A stretch of DNA of 64,000 nucleotides from Candidatus Micrarchaeota archaeon. Its GTDB lineage: Archaea > Micrarchaeota > Micrarchaeia > Micrarchaeales > Micrarchaeaceae. The translations under genes were made by a program, and so were the position numbers. Below the pieces are notes generated by a model. The model was not told the DNA's origin. It saw only the letters and a list, made by a program, of their open reading frames with translations, and did not search any database. Shown piece by piece: positions 885-60,712 of the stretch. The stretch lies in assembly GCA_021816885.1 (NCBI GenBank), contig JAKAWS010000003.1, forward strand, positions 5,091 through 69,090, given 5' to 3'. The first letter of the stretch is position 1. Each line of letters starts with the position of its first letter.

Positions 885-1005
885 ATGCGCGCCAGTCATC
901 TAGCCTGGTAGGATATCAGCTTCCCAAACCCGGAAAAAGCTGAATGCCCGGGTCCAAATCCCGGCTGGCGCAAAACCATGCAGATCCAAAGACATGGCTG
1001 CTTAC

Positions 1006-8437: not shown

Positions 8438-8624
8438 ATGTATCTATGGTTTGTTGTGTTGGGTGAATCCTAATCCCTGACGCCGTGGTTATTATCAGTA
8501 TCCTGCCCTACACAAAAGGTTTATGGTTTGTCAGCCATATGCGTAAAGCGGTTTTGATGTGCCTGCATACAATTGCAACCCCTTAAAATTTTTCCATACA
8601 AATATAATCAGATCAGAACAAGAC

Positions 8625-9035
8625 ATGGTGATGCAGATCAACAGAAAATTTATAGAGCTCGGGTTTATCGTAGCTGCACTTGTAGATGCCATTTACTTAT
8701 CGATAGAACACTTCTTCCATGGCATATTATCGTGCTCCGCGTTCGGCCTGATAAACTGCCAGTTGGTACTGACAAGCAGGTTTTCCGCGATATTTGGCAT
8801 ACCTATAGCGTTCATGGCCCTTACATGGTCAATACTTCTGTTTGCGGTTGTGTACTTGGGCCTAAAGAACAAAGCGATTGTCTACGCTCTTCTGACGGTG
8901 GGAGCATTAGGCGTCATATATTCTATTACTGCACAATGGTCACTTGGACACATATGCGAATACTGCACGGTGTTGGATGTCCTTATAGCAATAATCATAG
9001 CGATACACATGTTAATGGCCGATAAGCATGGATAA
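8625..9035 (+). CDS. VKOR-family (vitamin K epoxide reductase-like) membrane thiol-disulfide oxidoreductase
   Basis: ~137 aa with 4 TM segments. Loop cysteines (SCSAFGLINC) plus an intramembrane CEYC (CXXC) motif. The ORF-track GTG start at 8559 is probably too early; the ATG at 8625 is preferred. Confidence 0.55.
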   Translation: MVMQINRKFIELGFIVAALVDAIYLSIEHFFHGILSCSAFGLINCQLVLTSRFSAIFGIPIAFMALTWSILLFAVVYLGLKNKAIVYALLTVGALGVIYSITAQWSLGHICEYCTVLDVLIAIIIAIHMLMADKHG

Positions 9036-10161
9036 AGACATAACAATAAGGGACGCGATACTGGGCGACATCAAAATAAACGACACAGAGCGGAAGATAA
9101 TCGATGATCCGCACTTTCAAAGGCTAAGGTACATACGGCAGGTAGGTTTCCTTTATCTTACATATCCCGGCGCAAATCATACTCGCTTTGAGCATTCCAT
9201 CGGCACCATGAAAGTCACGAAGGACATCTGCGAGGCGTTGGGGATAGAGAACGCGGAACTCGCGGTGAGCGGATTACTGCACGACATAGGCCATGCTCCG
9301 TTTTCACACCAATCCGAAGACATAATGAAGCGCTATCTCCACAAGGACCACGAACAGGTAGGTGCAGAGATAATCAGCAAAAGTTCGATCCGCGACAAGA
9401 TATCAGACTCAAATCTCTCGTACAAGAAACTAATCTCCTACATAAAAGGCGCACACCCAAGCGAGATAATATGCGGAGCTGTTGGCTCGGACAGGATAGA
9501 CTACCTTGTCAGAGACTCATATTACACTGGCACCGCATACGGTATGATAGAGACTGACAGGATAAAGGGCAAAATGGCGATATCTGGGGGACATCTCGGC
9601 ATAAAAGAGAGCGGCCTGCAAGTCGCAGAATCCATACTCATAGCGCGCTATTACATGTTTATATCTGCATATACGCACCACACAACCATAATAGCAGGAG
9701 GGATGTTCGACAGGGCGCTGGATCTTGCCATAGGTGCCGGAGAGATAGACCCGAAAAGCATACTAAACGAGAGCGACTATTCCATAATGGCCAGACTTGC
9801 CGCCTCGGAGACCGAAGCATCTAAGATATCCAAGAGAATAACGGAACGCCGCCTCCTGAAGAGAATATACTACAAACCAATCCACGAGAATGACTTGGCA
9901 GAGAAGGTGCGCGAAAAGGTATCGACACTAGACATAGACCAGGATAACACAATAATAAGAGCGATAAAACTGAAGGGCGGATCGGATGACATCGACATAA
10001 TCGACAAGAACAGAAAAATCTCAGGCAAGCTCAGCGAAAAGTCCGAACTTTTCGCAAAGCTCAGCGAGACGATGAGGAACAGAACGATGCTGCTTGTAGC
10101 AGCAGAGGAGAAGGATAGAAAGAAGGTAGAGGCAGCAACATCGAAGATTTTGGGTGCATAA
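9028..10161 (+). CDS. HD-domain phosphohydrolase (dNTP triphosphohydrolase-like)
   Basis: RFEHSIGT ... LLHDIGHAPFSH HD motifs. 377 aa. Confidence 0.7.
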   Translation: MDKDITIRDAILGDIKINDTERKIIDDPHFQRLRYIRQVGFLYLTYPGANHTRFEHSIGTMKVTKDICEALGIENAELAVSGLLHDIGHAPFSHQSEDIMKRYLHKDHEQVGAEIISKSSIRDKISDSNLSYKKLISYIKGAHPSEIICGAVGSDRIDYLVRDSYYTGTAYGMIETDRIKGKMAISGGHLGIKESGLQVAESILIARYYMFISAYTHHTTIIAGGMFDRALDLAIGAGEIDPKSILNESDYSIMARLAASETEASKISKRITERRLLKRIYYKPIHENDLAEKVREKVSTLDIDQDNTIIRAIKLKGGSDDIDIIDKNRKISGKLSEKSELFAKLSETMRNRTMLLVAAEEKDRKKVEAATSKILGA

Positions 10162-10270
10162 TCTAAACTTTATTGCATATGGTATGTCAGTCTATCAGAG
10201 CAGATCTGCCGCTTTTTGATAATGCCATAATCGCATCGCAACAAATCCACCGCAACCAAGACATCCAAAC

Positions 10271-10280
10271 AAATAAAAAA
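10271..10280 (+). promoter_or_regulatory. TATA-like box (aaataaaaaa) centred about -27 from tRNA-Lys
   Basis: A/T box at the canonical archaeal distance upstream of the mature 5' end at 10303. Confidence 0.4.
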
Positions 10281-10302
10281 CATTACAAACAAAAAGAGCT
10301 GT

Positions 10303-10391
10303 GGGTCTATAGCTCAGCTTGGTTAGAGCGGCTGGCTCTTAACCAGTAGGTCGAGGGTCCAAAATCAAAGATGGAAATCCCTCTAGACCCG
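10303..10391 (+). tRNA. tRNA-Lys (anticodon CTT) with a 14-nt insertion (putative intron) in the T-loop
   Basis: Acceptor gggtcta/tagaccc, D-arm gctcagcttggttagagc, anticodon stem gctgg/ccagt with loop ctCTTaa, T-stem gaggg/ccctc. The T-loop is 21 nt (tccaaaatcaaagatggaaat) rather than 7. Removing 10361-10374 restores tccaaat. Confidence 0.75.
10361..10374 (+). other. Putative non-canonical tRNA intron (T-loop position 56/57) in tRNA-Lys
   Basis: 14 nt, aaaatcaaagatgg. Its 3' end (tgg) pairs with T-loop nt 54-56 (tcc...a) to give a 4-bp helix, and a 3-nt bulge (aat) precedes the T-stem. Confidence 0.55.
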
Positions 10392-10396
10392 CACAA

Positions 10397-11557
10397 CTAA
10401 GGCTGCATCCAGTCAATCTCATAATACTCATACTCGCTTCCAGGCAGGTCGATCTTCTTTATCTTGTAGTAAGTGACGGATGTCTCTCTATCGGCAATCG
10501 CCACTACAAGTTCAAGCTTTCTCGATTTCGACTCCTTTATCATGCTTGAAAGCTCTGCGCCGCCTATATAGGAACTTTCCGTCAGAGAAAGCATCGCGTA
10601 AGACGGAGCGCTGTGCTCTGGAGACTCGCTGTCCCCTCCTTTCCTGTGATAGAGCACAAAGTCTATCTCCTCATTTTTCTTCCTGCTCTTTCCAGGTATC
10701 GCAAGTATGAACGTCTTTCTTACAGAATGCGCGACCCGTATGGCTCTTGACCACTCCGAAGTCAGTAGTTTCTGGTCCTGCGGAAATACATGAAGGACGT
10801 GCTTGGAATGGGTCCAGTTCTCATCCTTTATCGGCTTTGCGCCAGGGAAATATATCCTAAAGTGCGTTCCAAACTTAAAACCAGTCTTTACCACATACCC
10901 TTTCTCTCTCCAGTCTGCATACACCTCATACAGCTTCATAAAATCCTGCCTGCGCTTCCTGGCAGCATCTACTATCTCTTTCTTGCTAAAGCCATCTATG
11001 CTCAATACCCCTTTATCTATAAGGAAGACCGCTTCGTATATATCGAGCTTGTTCAGAATCCCTCTGTCGCTAGCTTTGTAAGTGCCATACTGGCCTAGCC
11101 AGAACTTGTCGTATATCTCCTTCCCCTTTTTCTGATCGTCGATTATGACTGTTAGGTCTTCTGGGAAGAATACTCCTTCGAGGCTTATTCCTCTCAGGTT
11201 CAGGTTTGATGCAGGATACCTTTTTATGGGTGTTCTATCAGATCCAGACTCGTGGTCCGGTTGTTTTATCACGAGTCCTCTGTCTCTCCAGTCCTTGAAC
11301 GTGAAATATCTCGCCATGGACTTCTTCGAACTGAGCCCTTTCGCAATCTCGTTAAAACTTACACTATTTCCTAGCGTATCTGTGCACGAAGCGTTTCTCA
11401 CATCAATCAGATAAAGCGCCTCAACTAGATCCAGATGCAAAAGACCGGAATCCAACCTTCCGAAAGAGGTGCGCCTAAGGTTGTCTATCGTAGACTGGTC
11501 CTTCACAAGCGCCATGTGCGCTTTCCTATCATATATTATCTCAAGCATGCAGTCCAC
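10397..11557 (-). CDS. endA: tRNA-splicing endonuclease, multi-unit (epsilon2-like, three-unit) form
   Basis: 386 aa. The central unit carries the catalytic signature YADWREKGYVVKTGFKFGTHFRIY (Tyr/His/Lys triad region). An N-terminal EndA-like unit (LVEALYLIDVR...) and a C-terminal degenerate unit (HVLHVF...VAHSVRKTFILAI) flank it. The length matches the three-unit enzymes reported from ARMAN-type archaea. Confidence 0.8.
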   Translation of the reverse strand: MDCMLEIIYDRKAHMALVKDQSTIDNLRRTSFGRLDSGLLHLDLVEALYLIDVRNASCTDTLGNSVSFNEIAKGLSSKKSMARYFTFKDWRDRGLVIKQPDHESGSDRTPIKRYPASNLNLRGISLEGVFFPEDLTVIIDDQKKGKEIYDKFWLGQYGTYKASDRGILNKLDIYEAVFLIDKGVLSIDGFSKKEIVDAARKRRQDFMKLYEVYADWREKGYVVKTGFKFGTHFRIYFPGAKPIKDENWTHSKHVLHVFPQDQKLLTSEWSRAIRVAHSVRKTFILAIPGKSRKKNEEIDFVLYHRKGGDSESPEHSAPSYAMLSLTESSYIGGAELSSMIKESKSRKLELVVAIADRETSVTYYKIKKIDLPGSEYEYYEIDWMQP

Positions 11558-12305
11558 ACATGACCATCAACGTCTCCTTTTCTATTTCAGAAAGTTCAGA
11601 ATGAAGTATAAAACAACACATCCCAAAGTCTATATCGATTTCCCTAAGCTCCCTCATCGATTTATAGATTACTTTCATATTATCAGAACCGATATCAGCC
11701 ATCATTACGAGCTCGCGGCTCTCTGCCAGAATCCCACGGCTGTTCTCCGCCTCAGCCGCCGACATTATGTCTATCGCTTTCTTATGGCTAATCGAACGTT
11801 GAAACTGCGCATCATAATCCAGCAATATAAGGGTGTGCATTCTGTTCTCGAAATTGATAGAGAGCTTGTCATAAAAAGATATCGGACGGTACCCCTCTTT
11901 CCAGTCCGCAATCGTGCACACCTGTCCAAACCTGTAGAAATCGAGCCCCGATTCACCAATCGCAGCGGTAAAAACAGATGAAGCATGTACAACCTCTATG
12001 GCAGTCCCTGTTCTGACAGCCTCCAGATACAATATCTTATGCGTAGTGGCGATGAGCGGATCCCCTCCGACCAGCAACGCCACATTGCTGTCCCGCGCGT
12101 TCCTTATAAAATCACCGGCCTTTTCTTCAAGCATGCCCCTATCAGCCTCCCTTACCTTTTTCCCGAGCTTTCTCTCTATCTCCGATATCTGGTTATCGGT
12201 TATCCTGGATGTATACCTCTCGACAAATACATCAGATCCCGCCAGCCTATCTGCTAACTCATCAGATATACTCTGATATATCCCAAGTCCACATATTTTC
12301 AACAT
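11541..12305 (-). CDS. dph5: Diphthine synthase
   Basis: MLKICGLGIY... tetrapyrrole-methylase fold, 254 aa, typical Dph5 N-terminus. Overlaps endA by 17 nt. Confidence 0.85.
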   Translation of the reverse strand: MLKICGLGIYQSISDELADRLAGSDVFVERYTSRITDNQISEIERKLGKKVREADRGMLEEKAGDFIRNARDSNVALLVGGDPLIATTHKILYLEAVRTGTAIEVVHASSVFTAAIGESGLDFYRFGQVCTIADWKEGYRPISFYDKLSINFENRMHTLILLDYDAQFQRSISHKKAIDIMSAAEAENSRGILAESRELVMMADIGSDNMKVIYKSMRELREIDIDFGMCCFILHSELSEIEKETLMVMCGLHA

Positions 12306-12315
12306 TAACTATCAA

Positions 12316-15072
12316 CTATCTATGCATCCAATACTTTTTATTCTTTATAAAATTTTTCTGCGCGTCTATCAGATCAGTATAAAAAAGCCTATGGTCATCA
12401 CGCTGCATCTTCAGGGCACGGGCTGCGGTCCTGGGTCCTACGCCGTAAGTGGCAAGCGCGACAGCTGCCTTTCCGCCATACGACCGGAAGAGCCTTGCCT
12501 CTATCATCATCTCGCTATAAGCCTTCATGTCAGCCCTAGTCATCTTTTTTTTGCCCTTTGACTCTGAGATTACCTTTCTGTAATTGTCCGTATAAGTGCA
12601 AAGCATGGCGCTTTTGCAGTTTGGGCACTCAAGCTTTTCCGCATCCTGTACCTCCAATATCTTTCTCTGGAAAGAAAGACCGCAATAAGTGCAGAGCAGT
12701 TTCGCTTTCTTGGAAGAGGTAAACTGTATGAACGACTCGAGAAGCGCGGCGTTCGGCCTTATTGGCATGATGAGCTCTTTTGTGTGATAATCCGAGTTGA
12801 GGATGCTGTCTGAAAGCGGAGAAAGTTTTCCAGAAGAGAACTTTTCCAATCGCAGCGTCCCTTTTCTTATATCGTCAAAGAACCCCTTAACGACTTTATA
12901 ATCGAAGTAATTGTCTCTTATCTCCCTATATGCTTCGAGCCAGACTGGGGTGCCTTTGAATATCTCCACAATCTTCTTTGCTGTGTTCTTAGAGAGACTG
13001 GCGCCCCTCTCTATTATTCCGAACCTTTTTGCTATCTCTACAAACTTATAATTGAAAAGGCTGGTTCCTGTTATAACGCTCTCCGCCGTCTTATCTATGT
13101 TAGAGCCGGAAATGTCTGAGAGAACGGCTTTCATGTCAAACCTATCGCTCTCCACAAAGATAAGATACGGGGAAGCTTTTGTGTTAGCGCTTGATCCCGT
13201 CCTTTTGGTAATCATCGTTCCAAGCAATTTCGATATGAACTCGTTAGCTCTGGTCCCCAAGAAGGTATAAATTACGGTATATCCTTCCATATTCTCTACT
13301 GCCACAGTTCCCCTTTTTAGCGGAAAAAAGGCAAGCTGGCCCAACACTAGCTCATCTACCGCGCGCGCGCCAAAACCCGCCGCCCTTTCTATAATATCGA
13401 GGAATCTTTGTGCGACACTAAAACTGACCGGGATATCCTCTCCGTACCAGTCAGGCACTGCCGCCGACACATCTGTGCACGGCTCGACTGTTATAACGTC
13501 TTTCTCTATGTCTATGACCTTCCAAGGCAGCCCTTTCGTTATGAAAACAGATGATTCAGAGACATTGCCCAGCACGAACTTTTCGTCAAGGAACGAGACT
13601 ATCTTCCCGTTCGCTATGTTCTTTACCTTGAATCTTATGCTGTCAGGTATCGCGCTCAGGTGCTCGTAATAATACATACGCGTTCGGCCTGTGCCTCTGC
13701 ACAGCTTGTCGTCTAACAGGATCATGTGTTGCTCATGCATAAATTTCAAAAGAGTAAGCAATTCTTCCTCTTTGATGTCCTTGTAAACGAATGACCTTTC
13801 GAATATATCCTTTATGCGCTTCAGATCAGTCGCGCCATTCTCTGCCAAAAGGCCGCATATCTGATGGGCAGCAATGTCCAAAGCGCCGAAATTCGGACTG
13901 AAACTCTCTAGCTCGCCATTTCTTGCATTTTCTAGCACCGCCATCGACTCTATGTAATCTACCTCGTTAAGCGCTATTACCGAGCCTTTCGATATCTTCC
14001 TTATTGAATGCCCACTCCTCCCCATCCTCTGAAGGAGCCGCAGCGCCTGCTTAGGCGAACCATACTGTACCACAAAATCAATGCTTCCTATGTCTATCCC
14101 TAGTTCAAGCGAACTTGTAGAGATGATCGCCTTCTTGCCCCTTTTTTTGAAAACAGCCTCAAGTTCTGCCCGCTCATCCTTGTCTAGAGAACCATGGTGC
14201 ACACCTATTCCTCCAAAACTCTCCAGCTTATCGAGATAAAGCAACCGACTCCCCAATGCCTCCACTACCTGTCTTGTATTTCCGAATATGAGACAAGAGT
14301 CTGATTTTTTGATGTGTTCGACTATCGCGTATATTCTGGCAAAAGAACCCTCATCAAGTCCAAAGAATTCTTCAAACTCTCTGTTCCTTGAAGATTGCGG
14401 TACGCTACGCGGCAACTCGATCCTTATATCTGGGACTCTCTGGGCATCTACTCTCGAAATCACACAATCGCGCCTTCCGCAAAGGAATTTTGCGACCACG
14501 TCGTCATCGTCCACTGTTGCGCTTATCCCTATCCTCTGAAAATCTCCGGCACGTTCGACCAAACGCTCCAAGGCGACAGACAATTGCGCCCCTCTCTTAC
14601 TGTAATAAAGTTCGTGTACCTCGTCTACAATGACAACCTTCAGATTCTTAAGATACTCTCCGATATACTTCGTGGGAAGTATGCTCTGTAAGGTCTCTGG
14701 TGTGGTTATCATTATATCAGGTGGATTTCTTATCTGTCTGGACCTCTCACTCTGTTTTGTATCTCCGTGCCTTACCCCTACCTTTAATCCAGAATGTTCG
14801 CATAGCTCTTCAAACCTGCCTAACATATCTCTGTTGAGCGCCCTTAACGGGGTAATATAAAGGACAGATATAGGCGCAGAGCCTCTTTCTTTCAGCATCT
14901 TTATTGCAGGAAGCATCGCGGCTTCGGTCTTGCCAGTGCCCGTGCCTGATATTATAAGGCAATTAAGACCCTTCTCTATAATGCCGAACGAGGCCTTCTG
15001 CACATCGGTAAAGGCTCCATGCTTGGATATGAAATAATCGTAGATATCCTTTGCGTCCGGCATGGCTACCAA
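12316..15072 (-). CDS. lhr: Lhr-type ATP-dependent DEXH helicase
   Basis: 918 aa. Walker A GTGTGKTEAA, DEVHEL box, helicase C, long Lhr-core C-region, and a C-terminal Zn-ribbon (CTYCG...CPNCKS). Confidence 0.8.
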   Translation of the reverse strand: MVAMPDAKDIYDYFISKHGAFTDVQKASFGIIEKGLNCLIISGTGTGKTEAAMLPAIKMLKERGSAPISVLYITPLRALNRDMLGRFEELCEHSGLKVGVRHGDTKQSERSRQIRNPPDIMITTPETLQSILPTKYIGEYLKNLKVVIVDEVHELYYSKRGAQLSVALERLVERAGDFQRIGISATVDDDDVVAKFLCGRRDCVISRVDAQRVPDIRIELPRSVPQSSRNREFEEFFGLDEGSFARIYAIVEHIKKSDSCLIFGNTRQVVEALGSRLLYLDKLESFGGIGVHHGSLDKDERAELEAVFKKRGKKAIISTSSLELGIDIGSIDFVVQYGSPKQALRLLQRMGRSGHSIRKISKGSVIALNEVDYIESMAVLENARNGELESFSPNFGALDIAAHQICGLLAENGATDLKRIKDIFERSFVYKDIKEEELLTLLKFMHEQHMILLDDKLCRGTGRTRMYYYEHLSAIPDSIRFKVKNIANGKIVSFLDEKFVLGNVSESSVFITKGLPWKVIDIEKDVITVEPCTDVSAAVPDWYGEDIPVSFSVAQRFLDIIERAAGFGARAVDELVLGQLAFFPLKRGTVAVENMEGYTVIYTFLGTRANEFISKLLGTMITKRTGSSANTKASPYLIFVESDRFDMKAVLSDISGSNIDKTAESVITGTSLFNYKFVEIAKRFGIIERGASLSKNTAKKIVEIFKGTPVWLEAYREIRDNYFDYKVVKGFFDDIRKGTLRLEKFSSGKLSPLSDSILNSDYHTKELIMPIRPNAALLESFIQFTSSKKAKLLCTYCGLSFQRKILEVQDAEKLECPNCKSAMLCTYTDNYRKVISESKGKKKMTRADMKAYSEMMIEARLFRSYGGKAAVALATYGVGPRTAARALKMQRDDHRLFYTDLIDAQKNFIKNKKYWMHR

Positions 15073-33980: not shown

Positions 33981-34118
33981 GGGGTTGTGGCGTAACCAGG
34001 CAGCGCAGTGGGCTCCAGATATTTAGTATTAAGTTGAGCCGTTTGGGCGATGATGAGAATCTGGAAATATGAATAGTGAAGTAACCTGCTGGTCCGGGTT
34101 CAAATCCCGGCAACCCCA
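33981..34118 (+). tRNA. tRNA-Trp (anticodon CCA) with a 65-nt intron at the canonical 37/38 position
   Basis: Acceptor ggggttg/caacccc, D-stem gcgt/gcgc, anticodon stem gtggg/cctgc with loop ctCCAg|a, T-arm ccgggttcaaatcccgg, discriminator A. The exons are split by 34019-34083. Confidence 0.8.
34019..34083 (+). other. tRNA-Trp intron (canonical position)
   Basis: 65 nt. Contains GATGATGA (box C-like, 34050-34057) but no clear CUGA box D. Confidence 0.6.
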
Positions 34119-37715: not shown

Positions 37716-37811
37716 GCAGGGATGGCGGAGCATGGTCAAACGCGACAGACTCAAGATCTGCTGGCTTAGGCCTACGGGAGTTCAAAACGAGAACAAATCT
37801 CCCTCCCTGCA
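37716..37811 (+). tRNA. tRNA-Leu (anticodon CAA, type II) with an 11-nt insertion (putative intron) in the T-loop
   Basis: Acceptor gcaggga/tccctgc, 3-bp D-stem, anticodon loop ctCAAga, long variable arm (tggcttaggcctac), T-stem gggag/ctccc, discriminator A. The T-loop is 18 nt (ttcaaaacgagaacaaat). Removing 37784-37794 gives ttcaaat. Confidence 0.7.
37784..37794 (+). other. Putative non-canonical tRNA intron (T-loop 56/57) in tRNA-Leu
   Basis: 11 nt, aaaacgagaac. Its 3' end (gaa) pairs with T-loop nt 54-56 (ttc), the same architecture as the tRNA-Lys insert. Confidence 0.5.
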
Positions 37812-44603: not shown

Positions 44604-44675
44604 GGGGCTCTTGGCTCAGTAGTAGAGCGCCTCGTTCGCAACGAGGAGGCCGCGGGTGCGAATCCCGCAGAGTCC
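44604..44675 (+). tRNA. tRNA-Ala (anticodon CGC), intronless
   Basis: Acceptor gggctct/agagtcc with the G3:U70 Ala identity pair, D-arm gctcagtagtagagc, anticodon loop ttCGCaa, T-arm gcgggtgcgaatcccgc, discriminator A. Confidence 0.85.
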
Positions 44676-44676
44676 A

Positions 44677-44685
44677 CGTTTTTTC
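44677..44685 (+). terminator. Oligo-T tract after tRNA-Ala
   Basis: cgttttttc immediately 3' of the tRNA; an archaeal terminator-like T-run. Confidence 0.35.
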
Positions 44686-44799: not shown

Positions 44800-45783
44800 T
44801 TACAGGTTTCTTACTATGAGTTCCGCCATGGCATTAATCAACTTCTCTGAATCGTTAGGTGGATGCATCCTGGTGATCCCTATGTCTATCTTTTTTGCAG
44901 TTTCGTCGCATTCAGCGCCTAAACCGTATAACGTTTCCATGTTCTCCGCCACATATCCCAACGGCACCAGCAGTACTCGTTCAAATCCTTTCGATTTTGA
45001 TTCCGATATGCAGATCTTTATGTCCTTGACCGGAGCCGGATGGCCTCCTGTGTAGTATCCGCATGTCCAATCTTGAAGCATAAGCTCCGTTGCAAGCCTT
45101 CTGGCAGTTCTTTCGAAATTTTTTATGTACTCGTCGCCTCCATCGATGAACACTTTCGGCATACTGTGGGTGGTGAATATCACCATGGTCCTCTCTCCCC
45201 TAATCGGAGCATATGCCTTGAGTATGCTTTCCTTCCACGTATCCAAGAATTGGACATTATCATCCCATGATTTAATCACGGTTGCGCTGCAGTCCATCCT
45301 CTGCGCCTTCATCTCGGATAGCAGGATCTTCTCGTATTTGTCATTGAACACCTTTGAGTATGAAGGGAACATGACTATCCCTATGACCTCGGCGCAACCA
45401 GCTTCCTTTATTTTCGCTACCACCTCCCTTATCGACGGATGCAGACGCTTCATTGCCGGGTAGACACCCGCATTTACTCCTTTCTCACTTAGCTTTGACT
45501 GCAAGGCGATTGCTTGCCTGTTGGTTATCTCCAGCAGCGGCGAAAACCCTATGCTAGCGTATTTACTTCTGAGCGCATCCATCTGCTTTTTTGTGGGCTT
45601 GCGCATGGCTCTTGCGACAGTAGCTGCATTGCGCCAGTCCTTCAACAGCCCTATTACAAGCTGCTTAGTCACCTTATGTTCCATTCTCAGCTCTGAAACG
45701 TACTTTTCGACCTCGTCCTGGTTGCTCGGGCTGCCAACGCTCATCAGGAGCACTGCGATTCTTTTCTTTCCTTCATTTTCCAC
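44800..45783 (-). CDS. hemH: Ferrochelatase
   Basis: FTTHSMP (FSAHSLP-like) and LVPLGYVAENMETL (IGFVSDHIETL-like). 327 aa. Confidence 0.8.
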   Translation of the reverse strand: MENEGKKRIAVLLMSVGSPSNQDEVEKYVSELRMEHKVTKQLVIGLLKDWRNAATVARAMRKPTKKQMDALRSKYASIGFSPLLEITNRQAIALQSKLSEKGVNAGVYPAMKRLHPSIREVVAKIKEAGCAEVIGIVMFPSYSKVFNDKYEKILLSEMKAQRMDCSATVIKSWDDNVQFLDTWKESILKAYAPIRGERTMVIFTTHSMPKVFIDGGDEYIKNFERTARRLATELMLQDWTCGYYTGGHPAPVKDIKICISESKSKGFERVLLVPLGYVAENMETLYGLGAECDETAKKIDIGITRMHPPNDSEKLINAMAELIVRNL

Positions 45784-45850
45784 AAATCGATATTTAGCAC
45801 AGGATATTTTAATTGTTAGTGTCGAAAAATATATCGCTGTGTTGAGTCAG

Positions 45851-46963
45851 ATGACTTTCTCTAACAAACCCATACTGCTTTTCTGGGAAACCACTAGGGC
45901 ATGCCCGTTGCGCTGTGTGCACTGCCGGGCAGACGCAATAGAGAATCCACTTCCCGGAGAATTAAGCACAGCAGAAGGCAAGAATCTTATAGATCAGGTC
46001 GCTGCGTTCGGCAAGCCCTATCCAGTAATCATATTTACTGGAGGGGATCCGCTTAAGAGGGATGATCTCTATGAGCTTTTGGCTTATACCTCCAGCAAGG
46101 GAATCGGCTTTGCCGTGAGCCCTGCCGTGTCACAGTTCCTCACTATCGAAGTGCTTGAAAAATTGAAACGCAGCGGCGCCGCATCGATTTCTGTGAGCCT
46201 AGATGGGACTCAAAAAGAGATCCATGATAGTATAAGGCAGTTAAACGGTACATATGAAAGGACTATCTCGGTCATGCGGCAAGCGATTGGTATAGGTCTG
46301 CCGGTCCAGGTCAACACTACTGTGATGAAACAGAACGTAACTGAATTGCCTATGATGTTCAAGCAGCTTATGGAACTTGGCATAAAGGTCTGGGAGGTAT
46401 TTTTCCTGATAAAGGCAGGGAGAGGCAAGGGAGTCGATGATCTGACACCTAGCGAATGCGAAAGTGTATGCAATTTCCTTTATGATGTCTCAAAATGCGG
46501 GATAATTGTCAGGACAGTGGAAGCTCCCTTCATAAGGCGGGTGGCAAAGCGCAGGGAGCGCACCGACTACTGGGCAGGGGATGAGTTATATCTAAAAATG
46601 CGCTCCGAACTCGACGCGTTTGGATACAGACCCGTTGCACCTTCAACGATCAAGCCCGTCGGCACTCTAGATGGCGACGGAATTATGTTTGTCTCTTATG
46701 ACGGGACCGTTTCGCCAGGTGGATTCCTCCCGCTCGGAGTAGGAAACGTAAAGAATGGGAATATTGTTGATGTGTACACTAAAAACGAGTTGTTTATGGA
46801 TATAAGAGAGAGGCGTTTGGAAGGCCCATGCGGAACATGTGCATTTAAGAGTGAGTGCGGCGGCAGCAGAGCAAGGGCATATGCCTATTCTGGCAATCCC
46901 CTAGGTTCTGATTCCGCCTGTTTCTACATGCATAGCCTGAAAAACGGCGCCAAAGATAAGTAA
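45851..46963 (+). CDS. Radical SAM/SPASM-domain protein (AhbC/AhbD/NirJ-like)
   Basis: CPLRCVHC (CX3CX2C) near the N-terminus and a C-terminal SPASM Cys cluster (CGTCAFKSECGG...C). Start taken at the ATG at 45851; the ORF-track leader overlaps hemH antisense. Confidence 0.7.
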   Translation: MTFSNKPILLFWETTRACPLRCVHCRADAIENPLPGELSTAEGKNLIDQVAAFGKPYPVIIFTGGDPLKRDDLYELLAYTSSKGIGFAVSPAVSQFLTIEVLEKLKRSGAASISVSLDGTQKEIHDSIRQLNGTYERTISVMRQAIGIGLPVQVNTTVMKQNVTELPMMFKQLMELGIKVWEVFFLIKAGRGKGVDDLTPSECESVCNFLYDVSKCGIIVRTVEAPFIRRVAKRRERTDYWAGDELYLKMRSELDAFGYRPVAPSTIKPVGTLDGDGIMFVSYDGTVSPGGFLPLGVGNVKNGNIVDVYTKNELFMDIRERRLEGPCGTCAFKSECGGSRARAYAYSGNPLGSDSACFYMHSLKNGAKDK

Positions 46964-47127
46964 TGATAAATAGATCAGGCAAGTTCCCTGTCAAGTTGTG
47001 CGGGCATCATCATTGAAGCTTACCTATGCAAGCATAGGCGCACTCCCGGCCGAATCTATTTGCGCCGTTCTGATATCCTGATAGTAAATATTAAATATGT
47101 TTGTTCACATAATAAATATGTGTTTTT

Positions 47128-52592: not shown

Positions 52593-52685
52593 TATAAGGT
52601 ATGCATAGCAAAATATTTATTTGAGGCGCGAAAGGAACCCCTATAACGGGCGCTGCAAGGCGCCGTTCATCTAACTACTATGTCA

Positions 52686-53660
52686 TCATTCTTCTGGAGG
52701 AATCTGTGCAGTCTCCTTCTTCTTTGGTTTAGGCGTTATCGTCGGTCCGTCGAATTTTCCCTTCTTCAGGTATTCATCTATTCCCGCCAGCCCGAACGGC
52801 ACCGGTATGCTGAGTCCTCTGCTCTCCGTAGGTATGAATACCATAACGTTCTTCCCGGTAAGGCTTATTTCATACATCATGTTAAGCGCTCTGAGCTGCA
52901 TCGCCTGGGGGTGGTTCATATACTTTCCCGCAGCCTCCAGCATCTTATCGGCAGCAAGGGATTCGCTCTCCGCAAGTATAACCCTTGCCTGTTTCTCCCT
53001 ATCAGAAGTCGCAACTCTCGCCATGGCGTTCTGGAGTTCATCAGGTATGGTGACATCCCTTATCTCTACGGAGATTGCCTCTATCCCCCAGTCCCTCACT
53101 CTATCCTCTATAAGTCCTTTTATATCATTCCCTATTATGTCTCTGCCGGCAAGCATAGAAGCCAGTGCGCTTTTTCCTATAACATCTCTCATGGCCGTCT
53201 GTGCGGCAAGCAGCACAGAATCATAGTAAGACTGCACATTCAATATTGCGCTCTTCGATTCCCTTACCTTCCAAAAAAGTATCGCGTCAACATCGACCGG
53301 CACATTGTCTTTTGTAAGCGTTTTCTCTGCCTTAAATGCAGTGCTTATCACCCTTATATCTATCTTTACCGGGGTGGAATCTATTATGGGTACTATGAAG
53401 AATAACCCAGGCCCTATTATCCCCCTATACTTTCCGAGCCTAAGCACAGCCATCTTGTTCCACTGGTCGAGAACTCTCACAGATAATGCAAGGACTACAA
53501 TCAAGACGAACATGAATACTGCGCCAGTAACAAACCCGCTTGCTGTAAATGCCCATGCGACTCCAGACACTATTATAATCAGCAATAAGTCTACCACTAC
53601 TGCTATCCCTCCGGAATAATCGGAGTCAGTCTTTGCGTCATGTTTGCTTTCGTGCTGCAT
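52686..53660 (-). CDS. SPFH/band-7 (stomatin/prohibitin-like) membrane protein
   Basis: N-terminal TMs then an SPFH domain (ILAESESLAADKMLEAAG ...). 324 aa. Confidence 0.8.
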   Translation of the reverse strand: MQHESKHDAKTDSDYSGGIAVVVDLLLIIIVSGVAWAFTASGFVTGAVFMFVLIVVLALSVRVLDQWNKMAVLRLGKYRGIIGPGLFFIVPIIDSTPVKIDIRVISTAFKAEKTLTKDNVPVDVDAILFWKVRESKSAILNVQSYYDSVLLAAQTAMRDVIGKSALASMLAGRDIIGNDIKGLIEDRVRDWGIEAISVEIRDVTIPDELQNAMARVATSDREKQARVILAESESLAADKMLEAAGKYMNHPQAMQLRALNMMYEISLTGKNVMVFIPTESRGLSIPVPFGLAGIDEYLKKGKFDGPTITPKPKKKETAQIPPEE

Positions 53661-60611: not shown

Positions 60612-60708
60612 TGCCGGGATGGCAGAAACCGGTATTGCGCCAGACATATGGGCGAAACTCGAGATCTGGTTTCCGCAAGGAAGTTTGGGTTCAAATCCCA
60701 ATCCCGGC
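60612..60708 (+). tRNA. tRNA-Ser (anticodon CGA after splicing, type II) with a 13-nt insertion in the anticodon loop at 32/33
   Basis: Acceptor gccggga/tcccggc, D-stem gcag/ttgc, anticodon stem ccaga/tctgg, variable arm t-ttcc-gcaa-ggaa-gt, T-arm ttgggttcaaatcccaa, discriminator G (Ser identity). 20 nt lie between the anticodon stem halves. Removing 60645-60657 yields the loop cTCGAga. Confidence 0.7.
60645..60657 (+). other. Putative non-canonical tRNA intron (anticodon-loop 32/33) in tRNA-Ser
   Basis: 13 nt, atatgggcgaaac. Without splicing the loop would lack U33 and the anticodon would be ambiguous. Confidence 0.5.
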
Positions 60709-60712
60709 GAAG

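Follow-up and report, generated by a model that had tools for sequence, protein, structure and literature searches.

The 64,000-nucleotide stretch analyzed here (the window) lies on contig JAKAWS010000003.1 of a "Candidatus Micrarchaeota" assembly (GCA_021816885.1) and carries on its minus strand a gene, endA, for a tRNA splicing endonuclease. We conclude that EndA is, very probably, the ortholog in an uncultured member of the Micrarchaeota of the ε2-type RNA-splicing endonuclease of ARMAN-2, and that its predicted substrates include the interrupted tRNAs of the same window. An initial annotation, made from the letters alone, had proposed a three-unit, ε2-like enzyme; this proposal is borne out by full-length homology to the ARMAN-2 enzyme, the predicted fold, the order of the domains, the conservation of key residues, and the relaxed bulge-helix-bulge (BHB) introns in tRNA genes of the window.

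The open reading frame (ORF) that had been reported at positions 10397 to 11557 is intact and was recovered as described, with its motif YADWREKGYVVKTGFKFGTHFRIY at residues 213 to 236; counted from a GTG at 11557, it encodes 386 amino acids (aa), and residue numbers below follow this 386-aa numbering. Sequence comparison indicates that endA likely starts at the ATG at 11548, which gives a coding sequence at 10397 to 11548 (minus strand; stop codon at 10397 to 10399) and a protein of 383 aa. This start is favored because an identical public protein (P0001) was called there and because homologs begin there. P0001 matches EndA over all 383 aa, is found in metagenome-assembled genomes in NCBI, JGI, ENA, and Logan assemblies, and is named "tRNA-intron endonuclease" by JGI; its gene is called there with the ATG equivalent to position 11548 of the window as start codon.

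The catalytic domain of tRNA-intron endonucleases (PF01974; E = 7.7e-30) and the N-terminal domain (PF02778; E = 3.1e-11) each matched EndA in two stretches, a faint Sen15-like Pfam signal was seen at the C terminus, and the NCBIfam endA model TIGR00324 scored 125.7 bits (cutoff, 59.6). When EndA was compared with all PDB chains using phmmer, the best match was 4fz2_A (E = 2.2e-164; query residues 10 to 386, chain residues 8 to 387), which has the same sequence as chain 9w2k, the "fourth type" endonuclease of ARMAN-2. The two enzymes are 64% identical over 380 columns. Next came α′2, α4, and (αβ)2 enzymes, whose matches, none better than E = 1e-28, lay mainly across residues 160 to 288.

Architecture and predicted fold of EndA

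Pfam scans run unit by unit gave the domain order N / N+C / C. The αN unit (approximately residues 4 to 98; positions 11264 to 11548, minus strand like all parts of the gene) has only the N-domain fold (PF02778, E = 4.9e-6 when scanned alone), lacks a catalytic domain, and aligns with residues 2 to 97 of the ARMAN-2 enzyme. A first linker (approximately residues 99 to 125; 11183 to 11263; ARMAN-2 residues 98 to 125) leads to the catalytic α unit (residues 126 to 287; 10697 to 11182), which matched both PF01974 (E = 1.3e-22) and PF02778 (E = 3.5e-4). After a second linker (residues 288 to 299; 10661 to 10696; ARMAN-2 residues 289 to 300) follows the structural βC unit (residues 300 to 386; 10400 to 10660), with a partial PF01974 match below the cutoff (E = 1e-4) and the faint Sen15 match. 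In the ARMAN-2 crystal structure, the units are αN (2 to 97), linker (98 to 125), α (126 to 288), linker (289 to 300), and βC (301 to 387) (PMC3488258). Alignment to the ARMAN-2 loop also placed the ARMAN-type specific loop (ASL) of EndA at residues 158 to 168 (11054 to 11086).

Profile models and AlphaFold, the checks suggested in the initial annotation, both agreed with its description of the three units. The AlphaFold2 model, built on 47 homologs, has a pLDDT of 85.9 and a pTM of 0.82, with lower pLDDT in the first linker. In Foldseek comparisons it aligned with 4fz2_A at a TM-score of 0.95 (root mean square deviation, 2.0 Å over 386 columns) and with 9w2k_B at 0.96, versus 0.50 to 0.55 with α′2 structures, among them 1RLV, 2GJW, and 3P1Y.

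The alternative stated in the initial annotation is a two-unit, α′2-type endonuclease, in which a structural unit precedes the catalytic one, as in Archaeoglobus and Thermoplasma, and which has narrow specificity. Enzymes of this type (Euryarchaeota; e.g., Archaeoglobus fulgidus 1RLV/2GJW) resemble the ε2 type in being homodimers of a multiunit chain with the same catalytic chemistry, their overall size is similar to that of EndA, and the matches of EndA to 1r0v (E = 4.6e-25) and 2gjw (E = 5.2e-25) are significant. These matches, however, cover only the central unit of EndA well (about residues 160 to 287). Unlike EndA, α′2 enzymes have a structural N+C unit and then a catalytic N+C unit and no ASL, whereas the first unit of EndA has only an N-domain and no C-domain, its third unit has only a C-domain and no N-domain, and it carries the ASL insertion, Lys161 included. 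A tandem of two complete (N+C) units was not found. The ε and α′ types are separated by the order N-(N+C)-C, the two linkers, and the ASL, all of which EndA has. The α′2 explanation is refuted by the TM-scores and the unit-wise Pfam scans, and we give it practically no chance of being correct.

A test proposed at the outset, that a prediction with only two endonuclease folds would indicate an α′2 enzyme, is ill-posed as a way of telling the types apart. In the ε2 crystal structure, αN contributes just an N-domain and βC just a C-domain, and the two pack into one pseudo-subunit (PMC3488258); because of this pairing, the ε2 type enzyme also has just two nuclease C-domains.

Functional residues and proposed mechanism

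The roles of individual residues in the ARMAN-2 enzyme are known from mutagenesis and structures (PMC3488258) and from its complex with RNA (PMC12397907). We mapped ten mutagenized or structurally implicated ARMAN-2 residues by alignment, and all ten are conserved in EndA. Assigning the Tyr/His/Lys triad unit by unit, as had been suggested, located it in the central α unit (Tyr236, His250, and Lys281; Tyr236, His251, and Lys282 in ARMAN-2) and there only, in agreement with the proposal of a single catalytic unit between N- and C-terminal flanking units. EndA is one residue shorter than the ARMAN-2 enzyme just before the catalytic His. The bulge clamp is formed by Arg274 of the α unit and Trp383 of the βC unit (ARMAN-2 Arg275 and Trp384). 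In the ASL, residues 158 to 165 read GTYKASDR, where ARMAN-2 has GTYKVSEH (G158 to H165); Tyr160 and Lys161 are both retained.

Residues of the dimer interface are likewise kept. The acidic L10-loop residues Asp356 and Glu358 lie in βC and the basic pocket residues Lys228 and Arg234 in the α unit, preserving the salt-bridge pairs Lys228-Asp356 (ARMAN-2 Asp357) and Arg234-Glu358 (ARMAN-2 Glu359). Lys241 and Lys244 of ARMAN-2 are also conserved according to the alignment, and ARMAN-2 Ser252 corresponds to Ser251 of EndA, read straight from the ORF translation. Across 47 homologs (58 to 88% identity), the triad, the clamp, Tyr160/Lys161, and the salt-bridge residues are invariant columns. This conservation and the αN-linker-α-linker-βC layout are the demonstrated part of the mechanism.

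For the remainder, homology to the ARMAN-2 enzyme suggests how EndA would dimerize, pair its active sites, accept relaxed motifs, and leave its product ends. Two protomers would form a homodimer via L10-pocket contacts, giving two active sites at a spacing suited to the BHB. At each site, an Arg and a Trp from different units (α and βC) would sandwich the first bulge base, and the ASL would anchor the backbone, so that the relaxed motif (hBH) could be accepted too; in the ARMAN-2 enzyme, the ASL confers broad specificity (PMC3488258, PMC12397907). Each site would cut between the second and third bulge nucleotides, as seen in the 1.8-Å RNA complex of the ARMAN-2 enzyme (PMC12397907), leaving a 2′,3′-cyclic phosphate and a 5′-OH for ligation. 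All five of the window's interrupted tRNAs are among the predicted substrates.

An alternative is that endA is a decayed or catalytically dead paralog and that another endonuclease, encoded elsewhere in the genome, performs the splicing; in its favor, the window covers just 64 kb of the genome, and αN and βC are degenerate by Pfam score. Such degeneracy has already been reported for the active ARMAN-1 and -2 enzymes (PMC3239211), the endA ORF is intact, and the catalytic and interface residues are all invariant. The genomic record points the same way. We scanned one genome per GTDB species, found an EndA relative in 129 genomes, and analyzed the best 80 loci; endA is kept in the same syntenic slot in at least 59 genomes. 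No second EndA-like sequence occurs within the 64-kb window. A dead paralog therefore seems to us very improbable.

Nothing in the sequence contradicts identification of EndA as an ε2 ortholog. Two points limit it: the window is 64 kb of a larger genome, so that a second endonuclease could be encoded elsewhere, and two of the tRNA motifs described below are weaker than the others, with flanking helices of 1 bp in tRNA-Ser and a C·A mismatch in helix H of tRNA-Trp.

Interrupted tRNA genes in the window

The window contains six detectable tRNA genes, five of which have BHB-type introns. Four intron-containing tRNAs had been counted previously, three of them interrupted at noncanonical positions; the total is too low by one, and the three noncanonical positions were confirmed (Lys 59/60, Leu 58/59, and Ser 30/31). 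The tRNA-Lys(CUU) gene (10303 to 10391, plus strand; 57.4 bits with the Rfam tRNA model) has a 14-nucleotide (nt) T-loop intron at 59/60 (10364 to 10377), with helix H formed by UCCA/UGGA, helix h by the T-stem, and bulges AAA and AAU, each cut after the second base. In tRNA-Leu(CAA) (37716 to 37811, plus strand), an 11-nt T-loop intron at 58/59 (37786 to 37796) has H = GUUC/GAAC, two AAA bulges, and a register-shifted 4-bp helix as h. A 13-nt intron at 30/31 (60644 to 60656) interrupts the anticodon stem of tRNA-Ser(CGA) (60613 to 60709, plus strand) in a relaxed BHB with H = CGCC/GGCG.

The other two introns are at the canonical position 37/38. That of tRNA-Gly(CCC) (889 to 972, plus strand) is 11 nt long (927 to 937) and of the hBH type, with H = UUCC/GGAA and the 5-bp anticodon stem as h; that of tRNA-Trp(CCA) (33981 to 34118, plus strand) is 65 nt long (34019 to 34083), with H = CUCC/GAAG including the C·A mismatch. 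The sixth gene, tRNA-Ala(CGC) (44605 to 44677; Rfam), has no intron. Separately, cmscan flagged the pair A27·C43, which tops the anticodon stem of tRNA-Leu(CAA), as a mismatch, and the BHB of this tRNA needs a two-nt register shift of the T-stem in the precursor.

To define the splice sites, we enumerated all choices that combine a perfect 4-bp helix with 3-nt bulges cut after the second base and yield a product that ARAGORN accepts as a tRNA. Exactly one solution exists for each of tRNA-Gly, tRNA-Lys, and tRNA-Leu, and six exist for tRNA-Ser, from which we took the 13-nt solution; it restores the anticodon (CGA) as well as the anticodon stem (CCAGA/UCUGG). For the gene at 33981 to 34118, ARAGORN first called tRNA-Arg(CCU), which we rejected because that splice gives no BHB; the Trp(CCA) splice at 37/38 gives three of four H pairs and a 7-bp flanking helix.

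Detection depended strongly on the tool. Rfam at the gathering score found the tRNAs beginning at 10303, 33981, 37716, and 44605, and permissive filters added that at 889 to 972, also found by ARAGORN, as was the gene at 33981. At neither threshold did Rfam detect tRNA-Ser(CGA), which was found by ARAGORN with introns allowed; in the same mode, ARAGORN missed tRNA-Lys and tRNA-Leu, the two with T-loop introns. Each tool missed at least one interrupted tRNA, so further ones may be undetected in the window. An extra candidate at 44978, from a T-arm motif scan, was rejected when reading revealed no cloverleaf.

In archaea, the intron of tRNA-Trp is 65 nt long at the median and harbors a nested box C/D small RNA (sRNA), and C34 of tRNA-Trp is the site of intron-guided Cm34 in other archaea (PMC4090602). 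The tRNA-Trp intron of the window holds a box C-like AUGAUGA (34050 to 34056), a 12-nt spacer, GAAUCUGGAAAU, and then AUGA. The spacer pairs with U33 to G37 and two intron nucleotides, and C34 is the pairing partner of the base located 5 nt before AUGA. An upstream UUGA, a GCC-GUUU-GGC hairpin, and the AUGAUGA could form a loop-closed D/C pair. Neither a convincing further C/D pair nor a guide for position 39 was found in this intron, and Rfam gave no match at an E value of ≤1. ARAGORN detected no tRNA-Trp in any of the fetched related loci, and eight metagenome-contig loci with the same tRNA-Trp anticodon arm and a 45- to 75-nt intron were rejected as chance matches in GC-rich coding sequence.

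The pattern RUGAUGA-N12-NUGA occurs four times in the window versus 0.47 times expected by shuffling. One occurrence is that in the Trp intron; the others are at 46322 to 46344 (plus strand; GUGAUGA-N12-CUGA, inside a 480-aa ORF at 45521 to 46963), 46991 to 47013 (minus strand), and 52667 to 52689 (minus strand).

The tRNA-Lys intron across related loci

A tRNA-Lys(CUU) gene lies downstream of and convergent with endA in 37 related loci, and these allowed the 14-nt intron to be followed across genomes. A T-loop insert of 13 to 44 nt is present at the same site in 18 of the 37 loci and absent from the other 19, which include "Candidatus Micrarchaeum" A_DKE (L055) and an ARMAN-2-like genome (L093). 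We aligned the BHB core of 14 distinct orthologous tRNA-Lys introns and tested it for covariation, which helix H and the T-stem both show. Standard pairs fill 95.5% of cells, compared with 86.0 ± 1.5% after shuffling (0 of 500 shuffles as high), and 6 of 11 pairs show changes on both sides, such as C55:G to U55:A and A57:U to G57:C. A slide control of the alignment peaks sharply at register 0. The covariation, shuffle, and slide results together establish that the insert is a genuine, structurally constrained BHB intron.

Conserved gene order around endA

The gene directly upstream of endA, dph5 (diphthine synthase; 11541 to 12305, minus strand; stop codon at 11541 to 11543), encodes a protein that matched TIGR00522 at E = 1e-51 and 175.8 bits (cutoff, 114.3) across residues 1 to 251 of 254. 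The overlap of dph5 with endA that had been noted is real, but its extent is 8 nt from the ATG at 11548 and not the 17 nt obtained from the GTG; both the GTG start and the longer overlap are probably artifacts of mechanical ORF calling. In public assemblies, a TP_methylase gene upstream of the P0001 gene likewise overlaps it by 8 nt. Because of the 8-nt overlap in the window, endA is probably cotranscribed with dph5. The pair is a conserved operon-like unit: in 59 of the 80 loci, the gene directly upstream of endA, in the same orientation, is dph5 (gap, −13 to +133 nt), and in 71 of them dph5 lies in that orientation within approximately 4 kb.

On the other side, endA and tRNA-Lys(CUU) are convergent. 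Their tail-to-tail adjacency stands as first described, with 5 nt, instead of the 6 bp given, between the tRNA end at 10391 and the endA stop codon. The wider block, comprising an Lhr-like DEAD/DEAH helicase gene, dph5, endA, tRNA-Lys(CUU), and genes for an HD-domain protein and VKOR, spans positions 8559 to 15072 and is shared, from helicase to VKOR, by loci ranging from the species of the window to ARMAN-2-like genomes (L081 to L084 and L093 to L095). Both arrangements, with dph5 and with tRNA-Lys, had been called unusual in the initial annotation. This does not hold for the lineage, given the synteny of dph5 in 59 of 80 loci, of tRNA-Lys in 37, and of both in ARMAN-2-like genomes; these features are inherited gene order in compact genomes and not oddities. 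Between endA and tRNA-Lys, the ARMAN-2-like genomes have approximately 550 nt more, in which gene callers place a 162- to 176-aa ORF without a Pfam match; the window lacks this stretch.

Could the tight packing instead reflect functional coupling, for example, of endA expression to a substrate gene? The 5-nt gap, the spacing of ≤20 nt in seven loci (L001 to L005, L046, and L060), and the adjacency of dph5 and endA might suggest so. In most other genomes with the same gene order, however, endA and tRNA-Lys are 160 to 1,875 nt apart, and the distance is 554 nt in the ARMAN-2-like genome that encodes P0023, an EndA 98% identical to that of ARMAN-2, where the tRNA-Lys is intronless. Nor does tight spacing go with the intron: at L046 and L060, the gap is 3 nt and tRNA-Lys is intronless. 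Because the neighboring tRNA-Lys is intronless in 19 of 37 loci, proximity to endA does not track substrate status. The endA 3′ untranslated region, which is antisense to the tRNA-Lys BHB, was rejected as an EndA substrate: read from the sequence, both antisense bulges lie 5′ of the central helix, with the opposite handedness and thus the wrong substrate geometry. Coupling of endA expression to tRNA-Lys through the 5-nt convergent spacing is speculative and unsupported by the evidence. We consider functional coupling as a whole unlikely by a wide measure and retain inherited gene order as the explanation.

Distribution of ε2 endonucleases

The three-unit architecture had been described as rare. 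It is lineage restricted, yet within the Micrarchaeota it is not rare, as shown by the 129 genomes with relatives. The best 80 of these relatives are all full length, share 57 to 88% identity with EndA, and nearly all come from genomes labeled Micrarchaeota; a large protein search returned at least 120 clusters of relatives of 368 to 406 aa. We also observed ε2 endA in bins labeled Marsarchaeota, Methanothrix, Saccharimonadales, or Acidiferrales (L007, L012, L014, L029, L035, L049, L062, L068, and L070). Some of these show the full endA neighborhood (e.g., L014, L049, and L062), and L029, L035, L068, and L070 show endA and dph5 only. The tblastn positions in L049, labeled Methanothrix, agree to a few bases with those in L041, L055, and L062. 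The oddly labeled contigs are probably misbinned and do not represent occurrences outside the Micrarchaeota.

Comparison with known systems and significance

The closest characterized system is the ε2 enzyme of ARMAN-2 ("Candidatus Micrarchaeum acidiphilum," EET89679; structures 4FZ2 and, with BHB RNA, 9W2K). It is of similar length (387 aa versus 383 or 386 aa), has its unit order, linkers, ASL, triad, clamp, L10 and pocket residues, and fold in common with EndA, and is encoded in the same genomic context from helicase to VKOR. The loci differ at tRNA-Lys, which is intronless and 554 nt from endA in the ARMAN-2-like genome, whereas in the window it has a 14-nt T-loop intron and is 5 nt away. 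The (αβ)2 enzymes of Crenarchaeota and Nanoarchaeum (e.g., Aeropyrum pernix 3P1Z/3AJV) resemble the ε2 type in their broad specificity for relaxed, noncanonical BHB motifs, in a lysine-bearing loop beside the active site (the CSL, compared with the ASL), and in the Arg/Trp clamp (PMC3488258, PMC6379350). Their α and β subunits, however, are encoded by separate genes and the CSL is not homologous to the ASL, whereas EndA combines everything in a single polypeptide, in which αN and βC make up the divided structural subunit.

The ε2 enzyme was discovered in ARMAN-1 and -2 by Fujishima in 2011, together with a proposal of enzyme-tRNA coevolution (PMC3239211), and its structures and the role of the ASL were reported by Hirata in 2012 (PMC3488258) and Miyata in 2025 (PMC12397907). 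The biochemistry of the type has been shown only for ARMAN-2 (PMC3239211, PMC3488258). The initial interpretation of the window reproduces this published picture for an ortholog, as both the enzyme type and the coevolution argument appeared between 2011 and 2025. The discovery value of EndA itself is small, since the ε2 class, its structure with and without RNA, the specificity loop, and the coevolution argument are all published and the protein is already deposited and annotated.

The value of the analysis is comparative: every experimentally implicated residue is invariant over 47 aligned homologs, drawn from more than 100 related Micrarchaeota genomes. Its most useful by-product is a clean presence/absence series of a noncanonical intron at a syntenic tRNA-Lys. 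We tentatively suggest, with somewhat less than even confidence, that this slot is a natural series showing how noncanonical introns are gained, lost, and turned over in the presence of an ε2 enzyme. If so, the series could help to establish when introns were acquired relative to the origin of the ε2 enzyme and to map the motifs that the enzyme tolerates.

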